A DNA stretch of 10,170 nucleotides from a virus (taxonomy: Duplodnaviria > Heunggongvirae > Uroviricota > Caudoviricetes): IMG/VR virus record IMGVR_UViG_2703718835_000004; one strand, given 5' to 3'. The notes under the pieces were generated by a model. That model made no database searches and had not been told where the DNA came from. It saw only the letters and a program-made list of their open reading frames with translations. The translations under genes and the position numbers were made by a program. Positions 4,784 through 10,170 of the stretch are shown piece after piece (within the stretch, counting starts at the first letter, position 1; the number at the start of each line of letters is the position of its first letter).

Positions 4784-6490
4784 TTGAGTAACTTACGCGA
4801 ATACCAGAATCGTATTGCAGATATCGCAAAACGCTCTAAAGCTGTGCTTGGCTGGGCAAGCACTGCGCAGTTCGGTACTGATAACCAATTCATTAAAGAT
4901 GATGCCGCGCGTGCCGCATCTATCCTTGAAGCTGCACGTAAAGACCCGGTTTTTGCGGGTATCTCTGATAATGCCACCGCTCAAATCGCTACAGCGTGGG
5001 CAAGTGCACTGGCTGACTACGCCGCAGCACATAAATCTATGCCGCGTCCGGAAATTCTGGCCTCCTGCCACCAGACGCTGGAAAACTGCCTGATTGAGTC
5101 CACCCGCAATAGCATGGATGCCACTAATAAAGCGATGCTGGAATCCGTCGCAGCAGAGATGATGAGCGTTTCTGACGGTGTTATGCGTCTGCCTTTATTC
5201 CTCGCGATGATCCTGCCTGTTCAGTTGGGGGCAGCTACCGCTGATGCGTGTACCTTCATTCCGGTTACGCGTGACCAGTCCGACATCTATGAAGTCTTTA
5301 ACGTGGCAGGTTCATCTTTTGGTTCTTATGCTGCTGGTGATGTTCTGGACATGCAATCCGTCGGTGTGTACAGCCAGTTACGTCGCCGCTATGTGCTGGT
5401 GGCAAGCTCCGATGGCACCAGCAAAACCGCAACCTTCAAGATGGAAGACTTCGAAGGCCAGAATGTACCAATCCGAAAAGGTCGCACTAACATCTACGTT
5501 AACCGTATTAAGTCTGTTGTTGATAACGGTTCCGGCAGCCTACTTCACTCGTTTACTAATGCTGCTGGTGAGCAAATCACTGTTACCTGCTCTCTGAACT
5601 ACAACATTGGTCAGATTGCCCTGTCGTTCTCCAAAGCGCCGGATAAAGGCACTGAGATCGCAATTGAGACGGAAATCAATATTGAAGCCGCTCCTGAGCT
5701 GATCCCGCTGATCAACCACGAAATGAAGAAATACACCCTGTTCCCAAGTCAGTTCGTTATCGCGGCTGAGCACACGGTACAGGCGGCGTATGAAGCACAG
5801 CGTGAATTTGGTCTGGACCTGGGTTCCCTACAGTTCCGCACCCTGAAGGAATACCTGTCTCATGAACAGGATATGCTGCGTCTTCGCATCATGATCTGGC
5901 GTACTCTTGCGACCGACACCTTTGACATCGCTCTGCCGGTTAACCAGTCCTTTGATGTATGGGCAACCATCATTCGTGGCAAATTCCAGACTGTATATCG
6001 CGACATTATTGAGCGCGTTAAATCTTCTGGTGCGATGGGGATGTTTGCTGGTGCTGATGCAGCATCTTTCTTCAAACAGTTGCCGAAGGATTTCTTCCAG
6101 CCAGCCGAAGACTATATCCAGACTCCGTATGTTCACTACATCGGTACCCTGTTCGGTAACGTGAAAGTGTACGAAGTACCTGCTGGTATTTGTAAGAACT
6201 TAACGACAGAGAACATTCAGTTCAGCTCGATGGATGTGCTGTGCTACGTCCGTGATGAAAATCCGGGTAAAGCAGGCTTCGTGACTGGTGATGCTGTCCC
6301 GGCCATCCCGTTCCAGCATCCGACCACTCCGGCGCTGGTCAACCGTACCACGCTGTGGGGTTCGGCTATCAACGATATGCACCCACGCAACGGCGCTGAT
6401 TACTTCACTCGTGTAACGCTGACAATGGCCAAAAAAGGCGGGCTTAACTTTATAAGCGGCGACACGATTGATGCCGGTGACTCTGAGTAA
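4784..6490 (+). CDS. Putative major head (capsid) protein, ~568 aa; probable TTG start
   Basis: Long ORF (track 4763-6490) with no in-frame ATG for ~90 codons. The TTG at 4784 lies 6 nt after a strong AAGGAAG (4771-4777). It is the first gene of an operon immediately after parS and before the sheath gene; size (~62 kDa) and position match the P1 major head gene next to par, from memory. Function is inferred from synteny and size only. Confidence 0.5.
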   Translation: MSNLREYQNRIADIAKRSKAVLGWASTAQFGTDNQFIKDDAARAASILEAARKDPVFAGISDNATAQIATAWASALADYAAAHKSMPRPEILASCHQTLENCLIESTRNSMDATNKAMLESVAAEMMSVSDGVMRLPLFLAMILPVQLGAATADACTFIPVTRDQSDIYEVFNVAGSSFGSYAAGDVLDMQSVGVYSQLRRRYVLVASSDGTSKTATFKMEDFEGQNVPIRKGRTNIYVNRIKSVVDNGSGSLLHSFTNAAGEQITVTCSLNYNIGQIALSFSKAPDKGTEIAIETEINIEAAPELIPLINHEMKKYTLFPSQFVIAAEHTVQAAYEAQREFGLDLGSLQFRTLKEYLSHEQDMLRLRIMIWRTLATDTFDIALPVNQSFDVWATIIRGKFQTVYRDIIERVKSSGAMGMFAGADAASFFKQLPKDFFQPAEDYIQTPYVHYIGTLFGNVKVYEVPAGICKNLTTENIQFSSMDVLCYVRDENPGKAGFVTGDAVPAIPFQHPTTPALVNRTTLWGSAINDMHPRNGADYFTRVTLTMAKKGGLNFISGDTIDAGDSE

Positions 6491-6516
6491 TCAGGGGAAG
6501 TTCTCCGTTTAACATA

Positions 6517-6534
6517 GCGCCCCGTGCGGGGCGC
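6517..6534 (+). other. GC-rich hairpin between the head and sheath genes (no U tract)
   Basis: gcgcccc (6517-6523) pairs with ggggcgc (6528-6534) around a gtgc loop, 27 nt after the stop of the head gene; the following sequence is not T-rich, so it is not a classic terminator. Confidence 0.4.
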
Positions 6535-6549
6535 ATAACAGGGAAAGTT

Positions 6550-8139
6550 ATGTCTCAATATTCAATTCAACAGTCATTAGGTAATGCATCCGGTGTCGCT
6601 GTTAGCCCGATCAATGCCGATGCGACGTTATCTACCGGTGTTGTATTAAATAGCAGCTTGTGGGCAGGTATTGGTGTATTTGCGCGTGGCAAGCCGTTTA
6701 CTGTTCTTGCGGTTACTGAGTTCAATTACGAAGATGTTCTCGGCGAACCGCTGAAGCCGTCCTCCGGCTCACAGTTCGAACCAATTCGCCATGTGTACGA
6801 AGCTATTCAGCAAACGTCTGGTTATGTTGTCCGTGCTGTTCCGGATGATGCGAAGTTCCCGATTATTATGTTCGATGAATCAGGCGAACCGGCTTACAGT
6901 GCGTTGCCATACGGTTCTGAAATTGAACTTGATAGCGGCGAAGCCTTTGCTATCTACGTTGATGATGGTGATCCGTGTATTTCTCCTACCCGTGAGTTAA
7001 CCATCGAAACGGCAACAGCGGACAGCGCGGGTAATGAACGCTTCCTCTTAAAACTGACCCAGACGACTTCGCTCGGTGTGGTAACGACCCTGGAGACACA
7101 CACTGTGTCTTTGGCGGAAGAAGCGAAAGATGACATGGGCCGCTTGTGTTATCTGCCTACGGCTCTGGAAGCCCGTTCTAAATATCTGCGCGCGGTTGTT
7201 AATGAAGAGCTGATTTCGACGGCGAAAGTAACAAATAAAAAATCGCTGGCGTTCACTGGCGGTACCAACGGCGATCAGTCGAACATTTCCACTGCTGTTT
7301 ACCTGCGTGCGGTGAAAGTGCTGAACAATGCGCCGTACATGTACACCGCTGTTCTCGGCCTGGGTTGCTATGACAATGCGGCGATCACTGCGTTAGGTAA
7401 TATCTGTTCTGATCGCTTGATTGATGGCTTCTTTGATGTCAAACCGACATTGACGTACACGGAAGCGATCTCTGCTGTTGAAGATACCGGTTTACTTGGT
7501 ACCGATTATGTAAGCTGTGCTGTCTATCATTTCCCGTTCTCCTGCAAAGACAAATGGACCCAATCCCGCGTGGTCTTCGGTCTGTCTGGCGCGGCGTATG
7601 CGGCGAAAGCTCGTGGCGTCAAGAAAAACTCCGATGTCGGCGGTTGGCATTACTCACCGGCTGGTGAAGAACGTGCCGTCATTGCTCGTGCATCACTTCA
7701 GCCGCTGTATCCTGAAGACACCCCGGACGAAGAAGCTATGGTCAAGGGCCGACTCAATAAAGTATCTGTAGGTACTTCGGGCCAGATGATCATCGATGAT
7801 GCTTTAACTTGCTGCACGCAGGACAACTATCTGCATTTCCAGCACGTCCCATCCCTGATGAACGCAATCAGCCGTTTCTTTGTCCAGTTAGCCCTACAGA
7901 TGAAGCATAACCCGGACGGCATTACTGAGTCTGGCCTGACTAAAGGGATGACCAAACTTTTGGATCGCTTTGTCGCCTCCGGCGCTCTGGTGGCTCCTCG
8001 TGATCCTGATGCTGACGGTACAGAACCGTATGTGCTGAAAGTTACGCAGGCGGAATTCGATAAATGGGAAGTAGTCTGGGCCTGCTGCCCGACTGGCGTA
8101 GCCCGTCGTATCCAGGGCGTACCGCTGCTTATTAAGTAA
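6550..8139 (+). CDS. Contractile tail sheath protein, 529 aa
   Basis: The central/C-terminal region carries a pattern I recognise from myovirus sheath proteins such as P2 FI (...AFTGGTNGDQSN...AVYLRAV..., ...AAYAAKARGVKKNSDVGGWHYSPAG...). Size (~57 kDa) and position directly after the head gene are consistent. Confidence 0.7.
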   Translation: MSQYSIQQSLGNASGVAVSPINADATLSTGVVLNSSLWAGIGVFARGKPFTVLAVTEFNYEDVLGEPLKPSSGSQFEPIRHVYEAIQQTSGYVVRAVPDDAKFPIIMFDESGEPAYSALPYGSEIELDSGEAFAIYVDDGDPCISPTRELTIETATADSAGNERFLLKLTQTTSLGVVTTLETHTVSLAEEAKDDMGRLCYLPTALEARSKYLRAVVNEELISTAKVTNKKSLAFTGGTNGDQSNISTAVYLRAVKVLNNAPYMYTAVLGLGCYDNAAITALGNICSDRLIDGFFDVKPTLTYTEAISAVEDTGLLGTDYVSCAVYHFPFSCKDKWTQSRVVFGLSGAAYAAKARGVKKNSDVGGWHYSPAGEERAVIARASLQPLYPEDTPDEEAMVKGRLNKVSVGTSGQMIIDDALTCCTQDNYLHFQHVPSLMNAISRFFVQLALQMKHNPDGITESGLTKGMTKLLDRFVASGALVAPRDPDADGTEPYVLKVTQAEFDKWEVVWACCPTGVARRIQGVPLLIK

Positions 8140-8148
8140 GGAAATACA

Positions 8149-8964
8149 ATGAGCAAAAACTTTTTTCAATCCGGGGCATTTTTGGGGAATGGACTGTCTC
8201 GTTTCGCTTTGAACTCTGATCTTGTGCAGTTGATGGAGTCTGCCCGAGCAAGCGCCGAACCGACAATAGATCCGGTTATTAATAATAATCCGGAACCGGC
8301 GGCACAGACTAACGATAATGCTCCATCTGCCACGGCTCCTGAGCAAATCCTGGAAGGGAAAGACGGTAAAGAATGGACCGTCGAACAGGCGCACCAGATG
8401 ATTCTGGAAGCTGCAAATCGAAGTGCTATGCAGAATGCGTTGAGTGATGCGGCCGACGCCGTTTTCGCCTGGGCTGATAGCGGTGATCTGACTTTCGACT
8501 CCCTTGATGGTTTCGTTCAGGCTATCGCTGGTATCTCTGATGACGACGACTCCGAAGTTACAGAAGAACAGGACGATGCCTATAACGAAGCATGGGCAAA
8601 TGTTGCTGACTTCCTCGCAGCATGCGGTGTAGATGATGACCTGATCGAAGCACTGGCTGACGATGAAGACGACGACGCAGCTGCTGATGTTGGTGCCTCT
8701 ATCGCTGGTTTAGATAGCGACGACCGCGACGAACTGGAAGCGGCGTTTGTTGTTGCTGGCACTTCTGATGAAATGCTGACTGAAGCATTTAAGAAGGTTG
8801 TTCGTAACGGTGAGATCAAACTCATCCGTAAACGCCTGCGTAAAAAACGTCTGACTGCGGCTCAAAAATCGGCGCTGAAAAAAGCGCGTCGAAAAGCCCA
8901 GACCGGCGCGGCAAAACTTGCCCGCAAAAAGTCAATGAAACTGCGCCGTAAGCGCCTTGGCTAA
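8149..8964 (+). CDS. Hypothetical virion-module protein, 271 aa, strongly acidic body with a highly basic C-terminal tail
   Basis: ATG at 8149 lies 5 nt after AAGGAAA. The body contains acidic runs (DDDDSEVTEEQDD, DDEDDDAAAD, DSDDRDELE); the last ~56 residues contain about 26 Lys/Arg (LIRKRLRKKRLTAAQKSALKKARRKAQTGAAKLARKKSMKLRRKRLG). No family recognised. Confidence 0.7.
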   Translation: MSKNFFQSGAFLGNGLSRFALNSDLVQLMESARASAEPTIDPVINNNPEPAAQTNDNAPSATAPEQILEGKDGKEWTVEQAHQMILEAANRSAMQNALSDAADAVFAWADSGDLTFDSLDGFVQAIAGISDDDDSEVTEEQDDAYNEAWANVADFLAACGVDDDLIEALADDEDDDAAADVGASIAGLDSDDRDELEAAFVVAGTSDEMLTEAFKKVVRNGEIKLIRKRLRKKRLTAAQKSALKKARRKAQTGAAKLARKKSMKLRRKRLG

Positions 8965-8990
8965 AGGAGGAGGCCGGAGAACTCCGGCCT
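8965..8990 (+). promoter_or_regulatory. Shine-Dalgarno sequence separated from its start codon by a stable hairpin (split ribosome-binding site)
   Basis: AGGAGGAGG at 8965-8973 follows the upstream stop; a hairpin at 8971-8990 (7-8 bp GC-rich stem, loop gaac) precedes ATG 9000. There is no SD within 5-12 nt of the ATG, and an in-frame TGA at 8997-8999 rules out an earlier start. Confidence 0.4.
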
Positions 8991-8999
8991 TTAACTTGA

Positions 9000-9581
9000 A
9001 TGGCTCCTATAGCTTATGGGGTTTACAGCCAGGCTGACGGTGTATCGCCATATCTGAAAGTTACTTTAACGAACTCTCAGTACCAGGTTACCGGATATAT
9101 CAGCCAGGGAGCGGCAATGAACATGGCCCAGAATTGGGAAGCGCCGTTTACCGGTATGTCCATGGGATCTGTTTCTGGTGCTCTGGGTGGTTTTGTGCAA
9201 GTAGGTACTGAAACAACGTCGGTTGCCCGTTGGAATAGCTTAATGGTTTGGGAAGGGGGGACTCCGCCGACGTTCACGCTGCCTGTAACTTTCATTGCTT
9301 TGAACAATCCATTCATTGAAGTTTCAGGCGCTATCGCCGCGTTGACAGCCATGATTAGCCCGGAACTAAAAGCGGCCAATGTTGGTGGTCGAATCCCGGA
9401 GCGCGTGACGCTAAACATTGGTCGCCGGATCAACATCACCGATGTCGCCATCCAGGACTTAAGTTTTGATCTCGATGCGCCAAGGGACAGTAATGGATAT
9501 TTCCTGAAAAACACCGTCAACCTCCAGTTGACCGGTTCTTCGATATATAACAGCTCCGATATTGTTCGGGCGTTCCAGTAA
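9000..9581 (+). CDS. Hypothetical phage structural protein, 193 aa (tail tube or other tail component is possible)
   Basis: Co-directional ORF in the sheath operon with protein-like composition; size (~21 kDa) fits a tail-tube-class protein, but no motif was recognised. Confidence 0.6.
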   Translation: MAPIAYGVYSQADGVSPYLKVTLTNSQYQVTGYISQGAAMNMAQNWEAPFTGMSMGSVSGALGGFVQVGTETTSVARWNSLMVWEGGTPPTFTLPVTFIALNNPFIEVSGAIAALTAMISPELKAANVGGRIPERVTLNIGRRINITDVAIQDLSFDLDAPRDSNGYFLKNTVNLQLTGSSIYNSSDIVRAFQ

Positions 9582-9592
9582 AAGGATTTTAT

Positions 9593-10102
9593 ATGGGGCA
9601 CAATAACACTAAGGGAAACCGTAAATTTATTAAGGGCCGCTATACTGCCAACGCGGCCAAAGGCGAACGACTGGTATCTTCTGAATTCCAGCTCACTTTT
9701 GCAGGCCATGAAGATATCAGCGTACTGGTTCGTACGTCGCAAATCCCTGAAATGACTCGAGAGAATGTGGAGGACTATGGTCCGAATGGTGTGAAGTTCA
9801 ACCAGCACGGACCAATTCGAAACTCTGGGGAAATCCAGGTCCAGTGCGTGGAGACTATCGAAGGCGATATTCTTCAGTTCATTAAGGATCGCATTGCGGC
9901 GAAGGACTATGTTGATATCACGATGGCTGCTACCCCTGAATCCAAATCTTCCGGGGTTAACGCTGTGACAAAAGCTGCTACAACAATTGAAATGTTGGAC
10001 TGCAAAATCTACAGTGATGCAATCGACTTTAGTACCGAAGATGTGACTGCCGCTGTGCGCCCGTCACTTCGTATCGTCTACAACTGGATTGAGTGGGATT
10101 AA
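9593..10102 (+). CDS. Hypothetical phage structural protein, 169 aa (tail-associated candidate)
   Basis: ATG at 9593 lies 5 nt after AAGGA (9583-9587), 11 nt after the previous stop; the gene is followed by a strong intrinsic terminator, as expected for an abundantly expressed structural gene. Confidence 0.6.
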   Translation: MGHNNTKGNRKFIKGRYTANAAKGERLVSSEFQLTFAGHEDISVLVRTSQIPEMTRENVEDYGPNGVKFNQHGPIRNSGEIQVQCVETIEGDILQFIKDRIAAKDYVDITMAATPESKSSGVNAVTKAATTIEMLDCKIYSDAIDFSTEDVTAAVRPSLRIVYNWIEWD

Positions 10103-10121
10103 GAGTCATCCCTTGTATTTT

Positions 10122-10148
10122 AAAGCTCCTTCGGGAGCTTTTTTATTT
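10122..10148 (+). terminator. Rho-independent terminator with a UUCG tetraloop
   Basis: Stem aaagctcc (10122-10129) pairs with ggagcttt (10134-10141) around loop ttcg, followed by a T run (TTTTTTATTT, 10139-10148), 20 nt after the TAA at 10100-10102. Confidence 0.85.
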
Positions 10149-10170
10149 GGAGTGACCCGTCCTGAATAGC

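Follow-up and report, generated by a model that had tools for sequence, protein, structure and literature searches.

The pmgG gene of a P1-type phage genome appears to start at a split (noncontiguous) ribosome-binding site, with the Shine-Dalgarno (SD) sequence and the start codon lying on opposite sides of a stable RNA hairpin. Based on comparison with relatives, we put the probability that bridging of this hairpin is the operative mechanism at about 0.6. According to this model, a very stable 8-bp G+C hairpin would form directly 3' of the SD AAGGAGG and would cut the separation between the SD and AUG 9000 to an effective 9 nt instead of 29; the 30S subunit would hold the SD by its anti-SD and have the AUG in its P site, the intervening 20-nt hairpin being looped out. 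Literature searches found no prior description of the junction between gene 21 and pmgG, and the site is apparently an undescribed example of a mechanism that is itself already known.

P1 has long served as a tool in genetics and is the prototype of the phage-plasmids, which are widespread. The DNA analyzed here (10,170 nt in all, referred to as the window) belongs to a P1-type phage genome, and its segment from 8100 to 10170 is 98 to 99% identical to Salmonella phage SJ46 and Escherichia phage P1. The late mRNA is polycistronic, with the order 23-22-21-pmgG-bplB (Table 1). Pfam gave zero matches for the four proteins searched, and the gap between gene 21 and pmgG is bare of annotation in the P1 record. 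The product of gene 21 has a very basic C-terminal tail. The 193-residue PmgG chain is present in PDB entries 9ay5 and 9vzk. In the cryo-EM model, PmgG forms a single hexameric ring (6 copies per virion), the sheath has 322 copies, and BplB is assigned as the helical tail tube, with the same helical symmetry as the sheath (bioRxiv 10.1101/2025.07.21.665459). These copy numbers, together with the gene order, make pmgG a 6-copy gene located between high-copy genes on one late transcript.

Table 1. Genes and elements of the gene 21-pmgG region (positions in the window)
Feature	Positions	Strand	Remarks
Gene 23, major capsid protein			P1 record annotation
Gene 22, sheath	6550-8139		P1 record annotation; PHROGs agrees (sheath)
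Gene 21, 271 aa, upstream cistron	8149-8964	+	ORF list; P1 gp21; phrog_1053, unknown function; stop codon TAA 8962-8964
Gene 21-pmgG junction, 35 nt			RNA ...GGC UAA (8962-64) AGGAGG (8965-70) AGGCCGGA (8971-78) GAAC UCCGGCCU (8983-90) UUAACUUGA (8991-99) AUG (9000)
Shine-Dalgarno sequence AAGGAGG	8964-8970	+	Best register; first A shared with the TAA of gene 21
RNA hairpin, 8 bp	8971-8990	+	Arms 8971-8978 and 8983-8990; tetraloop GAAC 8979-8982
AU-rich spacer UUAACUUGA, 9 nt	8991-8999	+	No SD; contains in-frame TGA 8997-8999
pmgG, 193 aa	9000-9581	+	T4 gp48-like baseplate/tail-tube junction protein; P1 annotation, PHROGs "PmgG-like," PDB, PMC9024508, bioRxiv 10.1101/2025.07.21.665459
bplB, tail tube	9593-10102		P1 record annotation; PHROGs agrees (tail tube)

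The only SD available to pmgG is distal, as the original prediction had stated. It is part of the run AGGAGGAGG (8965 to 8973), and no SD was found within positions -20 to -1 of ATG 9000, where the best duplex with the 3' end of 16S rRNA reaches -1.7 kcal/mol (-0.4 kcal/mol for the spacer itself). The distance of 27 nt given in that prediction needs a small correction, as 26 nt lie between position 8973 and the ATG, or 29 nt when counted linearly from the end of GGAGG at 8970, well over the approximately 15 nt beyond which a site is considered split. With a duplex energy of -11.6 kcal/mol, this SD is the strongest among the eight gene starts in the window. Once the hairpin forms, what is left between the SD and the AUG is the 9 nt from 8991 to 8999, the same value that had been predicted and one within the functional range (5 and 11 nt in T4). 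We also scanned both strands of the window for a composite motif (an SD 5-mer, a hairpin of at least 7 bp with at least 5 G-C pairs, a start codon 4 to 12 nt later, and an SD-free spacer). Its single occurrence is the gene 21-pmgG junction, while dinucleotide shuffles contained a mean of 0.05 per window, with at least one occurrence in 9 of 200 shuffles.

The start codon itself is well supported. The TGA at the end of the spacer is in frame with ATG 9000 and excludes a start further upstream, as had been proposed. Homologues as distant as 53% identity conserve the N-terminal 39 residues of PmgG, among them Y6, G7, D13, V15, S16, L19, and K20, and we therefore take ATG 9000 as the pmgG start rather than the next in-frame ATG at 9117. 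The latter is preceded by GGGAG 5 nt upstream and was rejected as an alternative start because residues 6 to 39 are conserved in all homologues. A fusion of gene 21 and pmgG by read-through or frameshift was also discarded, as the frames differ and both are closed within the junction, the gene 21 frame by a TAA at 8992 to 8994 and the pmgG frame by the TGA.

The stem-loop described in the original prediction was confirmed by structure prediction. The inverted repeat is perfect (8971 to 8979 with 8982 to 8990), and the G+C core stem of 8 bp with its GAAC loop has a folding energy of -14.6 kcal/mol. The minimum-energy fold adds a G8970-U8991 wobble and possibly G8969-U8992; the isolated 24-mer (8969 to 8992) folds at -16.6 kcal/mol with this outermost pair open, while other folds pair 8969 with 8992. 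In a 56-nt context, the energy was -24.5 kcal/mol (z = -3.5), and an equally good fold was obtained in 1 of 200 shuffles. The core pairs had a probability of about 1 in a 130-nt context, and AUG 9000 and the spacer were mostly unpaired (probability of roughly 0.6 to 0.9). The core of the hairpin thus lies wholly between the SD and the start codon, both of which are outside the helix, and only one or two optional G-U pairs enter the SD. A search of positions 6400 to 10170 against Rfam found no match to a known RNA family at E values up to 1.

To determine how the junction varies, we collected about 240 loci with PmgG homologues from genomes, viral contigs, metagenomes, and assemblies, which yielded 39 distinct junctions, and 18 representatives were aligned. 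Conservation of the stem in relatives had been suggested as a check of the original prediction, and the hairpin was found in all 18 distinct junctions, 5 to 14 nt past the stop of the upstream gene, the homologue of gene 21. The stems vary widely in sequence (GGCCGGA/UCCGGCC, GGGCCGG/CCGGCCC, CCGGCCGG, CUGGCCGG/CCGGCCAG, GGCCACCAGC/GCUGGUGGUC, GCCGCCGG/CCGGCGGC, and CGGCCGCCC/GGGCGGCCG, among others). The RNAalifold consensus helix of these junctions has 10 pairs, 7 of them with compensatory double changes. Pair counting gave 87.8% of cells paired versus 69% in shuffles, and the covariation score of 0.52 (0.21 in shuffles) was matched by none of 500 shuffles; slid alignment registers all scored far below the true hairpin register. 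Since both covariation and pairing are above those of the shuffles, we conclude that the hairpin is a selected RNA structure. Across the relatives, GNRA and UUCG tetraloops are frequent among the loops, an indication that the element functions as RNA. A protein-binding palindrome at the DNA level was considered and is unlikely, because the lineages have entirely different stem sequences that nevertheless pair, with loops of the tetraloop kinds typical of RNA. At a much shorter evolutionary distance, the approximately 200 near-identical P1-type loci contained five stem substitutions, four of which make G-U pairs and one of which breaks the outermost G-C pair, and none of the five falls in GGAG.

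The aligned junctions fall into two types that differ in the side of the hairpin on which the SD is located. Clade A comprises P1, P7, and SJ46 together with types from Salmonella (L088, L098) and Klebsiella (L090, L108) and the L092/L099 and L101 types, while clade B includes nine lineages (L006/L102, L096, L094, L100, L105, L106/107, L123, L185, and L007). In clade A, the SD is present 5' of the hairpin (-7.4 to -11.6 kcal/mol) and there is none on the 3' side (0 to -2.0 kcal/mol), whereas clade B has none on the 5' side (-2.4 to -5.6 kcal/mol) and a conventional one 3' of the hairpin (-6.8 to -13.1 kcal/mol), 3 to 7 nt before the start. The distance from the G-C core to the start codon differs accordingly, being 8 to 10 nt in clade A, shortened from the 13 to 16 nt of clade B, whose junctions measure 42 to 51 nt. 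The order stop-SD-hairpin-8 to 10 nt-AUG is maintained throughout clade A, and GGAG, stem, and spacer length are preserved in every relative of this clade, down to about 69% PmgG identity. The spacers are nearly randomized in sequence but constant in length (UUUAACUUGA, UUAUUGACAG, UUGAAUUAUC, UUAACCUGAU, and CUACAUUGCA); the loops also vary (GAAC, UUUC, GCGA, GUGA, UUCG, AUUG, and AAUAU), and the closing pair of the stems alternates between A-U and G-C. In the Klebsiella type, PmgG is 2 residues shorter and the whole module lies 6 nt further downstream, with the 9- to 10-nt spacing intact.

The fact that an SD is always found on one or the other side of the hairpin indicates that pmgG needs one. 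An SD on the 5' side can serve AUG 9000 only across the folded hairpin, from which we infer that the ribosome actually bridges it, and the compensating spacer length supports this reading. The T4-like split site put forward in the original prediction thus gains support from the relatives, as clade A keeps the SD, the stem, and a spacer of 8 to 10 nt. That prediction had also named orthologues with a conventional SD and without the stem as evidence against it; the distant orthologues do have a conventional SD but keep the stem, with a longer spacer.

In a neighbor-joining tree of PmgG, the clade-A sequences form one monophyletic group inside clade B, which indicates that the split layout had a single origin and was then maintained. 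Phylogenetically, the split state therefore counts as one observation with later maintenance. We infer that the SD moved from the 3' to the 5' side of the hairpin in the ancestor of the P1 clade; before the stem, the sister lineage has UAACAGAGUG where the Klebsiella type has UAACAGGAGAG. In several clade-A members, the old start is marked by another AUG (M-A-M-E) that follows two codons later, about 16 nt away from the hairpin; in P1 this codon is now AUA, which leaves only AUG 9000. Judging from the distribution among the clades, the hairpin predates the split layout, into which it would have been co-opted, and bridging is not the reason for its existence. Indeed, it is equally conserved in clade B, where nothing is bridged, and so no split ribosome-binding site is needed to explain it.

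A different role for the hairpin is suggested by the other junctions of the operon. A second conserved hairpin (window 6517 to 6534, GCGCCCCG-UG-CGGGGCGC) is located at the 23/22 junction in all relatives for which that region could be inspected and is followed by a normal SD. No hairpin was found at the 22/21 and pmgG/bplB junctions, which are 9 to 11 nt long in the window and up to 16 nt in relatives. At the 21/pmgG junction, the hairpin is conserved just past the upstream stop codon regardless of the layout of the downstream ribosome-binding site, the pattern expected of intercistronic punctuation. It probably punctuates the mRNA, contributing to stability, acting as a processing barrier, or insulating the cistrons.

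Because a G+C-rich stem is conserved directly behind a stop codon in every relative, and UUU follows it in P1, the hairpin could also be a transcription attenuator or intrinsic terminator past gene 21, in which case the SD-like run would be incidental. We regard this as extremely unlikely. There is no U-tract (the tail is UUUAACUU in the window, and 0 to 3 U follow the stem in relatives), the high-copy tail-tube gene bplB is further downstream, its start being separated from the hairpin by a stretch in which a promoter is neither annotated nor predicted, and a terminator leaves the strict either/or placement of the SD unexplained. A terminator scan did not call the junction hairpin but did call a true terminator past bplB (10122 to 10141, with the T-run TTTTTTATTT). 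A canonical intrinsic (Rho-independent) terminator was consequently rejected, given the missing call and the missing U-tract.

The copy numbers raise the question of whether the hairpin serves initiation or limits it. In the bridging reading, the arrangement probably gives a modest, fixed output from a strong SD, not maximal output, as a virion requires no more than 6 copies of PmgG. Alternatively, a distal SD combined with a rigid hairpin might chiefly down-tune translation, with the 30S subunit reaching AUG 9000 rarely, or only when the hairpin breathes (standby binding); PmgG would then be made in few copies while the neighboring sheath and tube genes are heavily translated, and the hairpin would be inhibitory or neutral. 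This is in line with the strongest SD of the window serving a protein modelled as one hexamer per virion against 322 copies of the sheath protein, and with the base of the stem overlapping the last two G of the SD via G-U pairs. In ensemble folds of the P1/SJ46 allele, moreover, the SD (8965 to 8969) can pair with CUCCU at 9004 to 9008 (codons 2 and 3), which would hide it. However, such throttling is unlikely in our view. The overlap with the SD consists of only one or two weak wobble pairs, the pairing with codons 2 and 3 is missing in most relatives, throttling alone would not demand a spacer length of 8 to 10 nt amid sequence drift, and clade B makes the same low-copy product with an ordinary SD beside the same hairpin. 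The junction does not have the features of an SD-sequestering inhibitory hairpin either, since G8969 and G8970 are the only SD bases able to join the stem, as wobble pairs at its base. Of the alternative raised in the original prediction, a hairpin that overlaps the SD, these weak pairs are what stands, while the core stem leaves the SD free. Pairing between the SD and codons 2 and 3 was also rejected as a conserved repressor helix, since that position reads GCACCT in about 170 of about 200 close relatives.

Some observations count against bridging in their own right. The strongest SD in the window serves the product with the lowest copy number, which fits inefficient use of the SD equally well. 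The SD of the P1/SJ46 allele is able to pair with codons 2 and 3, a pairing that most close relatives are without. Finally, the hairpin is twice as stable as that of T4 gene 25, and such a rigid insert may be less well tolerated by the 30S subunit.

The position of the SD next to the gene 21 stop codon also had to be considered. In P1 its first base is also the last base of that stop codon, and in all clade-A relatives the two are within 1 to 7 nt of each other, a proximity that would suit termination-reinitiation, in which ribosomes ending gene 21 at its TAA restart at AUG 9000, 35 nt downstream. The SD would then only tether the post-termination 30S subunit, and bridging by free 30S subunits would not be the main route. 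Judging from the size of the ribosome footprint, a ribosome that terminates on gene 21 would unwind the 5' side of the stem, which could then refold. However, 35 nt with a hairpin of -15 kcal/mol make a long, structured gap, the other junctions of this operon that could couple are 9 to 11 nt long and hairpin-free, and clade B, with junctions of 42 to 51 nt and an SD of its own close to the start, looks like a case of independent initiation. We hold reinitiation as the main route to be very unlikely. A more speculative and distinctly unlikely combination is that the terminating gene 21 ribosome hands its 30S subunit over to the abutting SD, and that this subunit initiates across the 20-nt hairpin of about -15 kcal/mol. 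Translation of pmgG would then be tied to that of gene 21 at a small, constant ratio, and the ancient hairpins at the 23/22 and 21/pmgG junctions would set segment stability or insulate cistrons. If true, hand-over to an SD abutting a stop codon would be a stoichiometry-setting device for a 6-copy baseplate protein, and the family would provide a natural before/after series for 30S initiation across a rigid hairpin.

The bridging reading has some practical consequences. The P1 family offers a comparative series with the same hairpin, the SD on either side, and an adjusted spacer, in which the model could be tested by swapping natural junctions. Gene callers and calculators of ribosome-binding-site strength that scan 5 to 15 nt upstream would score pmgG as SD-less, and the arrangement matters when P1 tail genes are re-engineered or when pmgG is cloned together with its natural 5' flank.

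The closest parallels are found in phage T4. The split site of T4 gene 25, at the gene 26-25 junction, was reportedly described by Nivinskas et al. in 1999 and by Malys and Nivinskas in 2009, and the translation initiation region of gene 38 is said to have been treated by Gold in 1988. Experimentally supported split ribosome-binding sites are few, T4 genes 25 and 38 being the named examples (PMC3014915). In genes 38 and 25, a structure between the SD and the AUG brings the two closer, to 5 nt instead of 22 and to 11 nt instead of 27, respectively (PMC3014915; also PMC7297116). Mutations that destabilize it lower initiation, and the arrangement is restricted to close T-even phages (PMC3014915). 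The gene 26-25 junction in NC_000866 reads GAGG-C-(CUCAAAG AGUU CUUUGAG)-UUACUAUA-AUG, with a 7-bp hairpin of -7.4 kcal/mol and an SD of -5.8 kcal/mol. As at the P1-type site, a tetraloop hairpin separates the SD from the AUG, and when counted identically, 27 nt are reduced to 9 unpaired nt in T4 (11 by the count of the T4 authors) and 29 to 9 in the P1-type site, a nearly equal geometry. Both serve a low-copy baseplate protein in a late polycistronic mRNA, and in both the arrangement is limited to one clade with conventional sites in more distant relatives. The sequences, however, are not homologous. In T4, a weak GAGG within the gene 26 coding region serves as the SD, and the stop and start codons overlap, whereas the P1-type junction is a true 35-nt gap with a strong AAGGAGG; the T4 stem is AU-rich (-7.4 kcal/mol) whereas the P1-type stem is G+C-rich (-14.6 kcal/mol), so that both SD and stem are about twice as strong in the latter. 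The P1-type hairpin also antedates the split, and relatives whose SD is conventional still have it. While the T4 case was proven by mutagenesis and DMS probing, the P1-type case rests on sequence comparison.

The other known systems resemble the pmgG site in part. In T4 gene 38, compared here by its description, a hairpin between the SD and the AUG likewise brings the spacing to a functional distance (22 to 5 nt; PMC3014915), although the folded spacing is shorter and the gene encodes a tail-fiber assembly factor. The noncontiguous initiation regions of Escherichia coli rpmE and thrS also tolerate stable hairpins in the ribosome-binding region, which arrange the initiation elements (PMC7297116), but these are 5'-untranslated-region regulatory sites bound by autoregulatory proteins, none of which is indicated at pmgG. 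The inhibitory hairpins of T4 e, soc, 49, and I-TevI share with pmgG a stable structure at the initiation region on a phage late or read-through transcript (PMC3014915). In those genes, the SD and/or the AUG is inside the helix, whereas at pmgG both are outside the core stem.

In the late operon, Shine-Dalgarno (SD) strength is inverse to the required copy number, since bplB, the high-copy tail tube gene, and gene 21 both have weak SDs, whereas the strongest belongs to pmgG, the gene of a baseplate protein present in 6 copies per virion. In the P1/SJ46 allele, codons 2 to 5 of pmgG (GCT CCT ATA GCT) can also pair with the SD region, in a larger helix that would enclose both the hairpin of the 21/pmgG junction and the AUG. 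These codons read GCA CCT ATA CCT in most close relatives, and the pairing is lost. It may provide extra repression specific to the P1/SJ46 allele, or may simply be due to chance.

Features of the late operon and flanking genes (window coordinates; SD energies are for the duplex with the 16S 3' end)
Feature	Position	Sequence or property	Location
ORFs of 286, 403 and 321 aa	1246-4519		Precede gene 23
Perfect G+C hairpin	6517-6534	GCGCCCCG-UG-CGGGGCGC	3' of the major capsid gene, within the 23/22 junction (6491-6549), 15 nt from ATG 6550
22/21 junction, with the gene 21 SD	8140-8148	UAAGGA, -6.1 kcal/mol	
gp21 C-terminal ~50 aa	8800-8961	Extreme K and R content (…KLIRKRLRKKRLTAAQKSALKKARRKAQTGAAKLARKKSMKLRRKRLG)	
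Potential larger helix, P1/SJ46 allele	8959-8969/9004-9014	GGCUA-AGGAG with codons 2 to 5	SD region and pmgG start
pmgG/bplB junction, with the bplB SD	9582-9592	AAAGGA, -5.4 kcal/mol	
Canonical intrinsic terminator	10122-10141	AAAGCTCC-TTCG-GGAGCTTT, then TTTTTTATTT	Directly 3' of bplB

A second hairpin was found at the 23/22 junction, where the SD (AGGGAA) is weak. It is kept, with varying loop and stem, in all relatives with sequence extending that far, and its presence and conservation suggest that structural hairpins punctuate the late operon. The operon probably ends at the terminator following bplB, and an analogous stem with T residues is found 3' of bplB in most of the relatives examined.

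Several DUF1643 (PF07799) proteins of 111 to 129 aa from Salmonella and E. coli (P0037-P0042 among the protein matches) match ~17% of PmgG at 97 to 100% identity, which looks like an unrelated gene joined to a P1-type pmgG fragment by fusion or recombination. At one pmgG locus (L206, OQVL01023251.1), unrelated DNA replaces everything upstream of codon ~4, and with it the SD, the hairpin, the spacer and the start codon; the break may be an insertion, a rearrangement or an assembly joint.

The product of gene 21, with its highly basic C-terminal tail, had no match in Pfam and no sequence match in PDB, and it is not mentioned in the available part of the P1 virion proteome paper. Upstream of gene 23, the 286-aa ORF lacks a recognizable SD (best, -3.5 kcal/mol). 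Together with the 403- and 321-aa ORFs, it probably corresponds to the replicon genes of the plasmid prophage, repA, parA and parB, as notes to the P1 map place repA and the par region adjoining gene 23.
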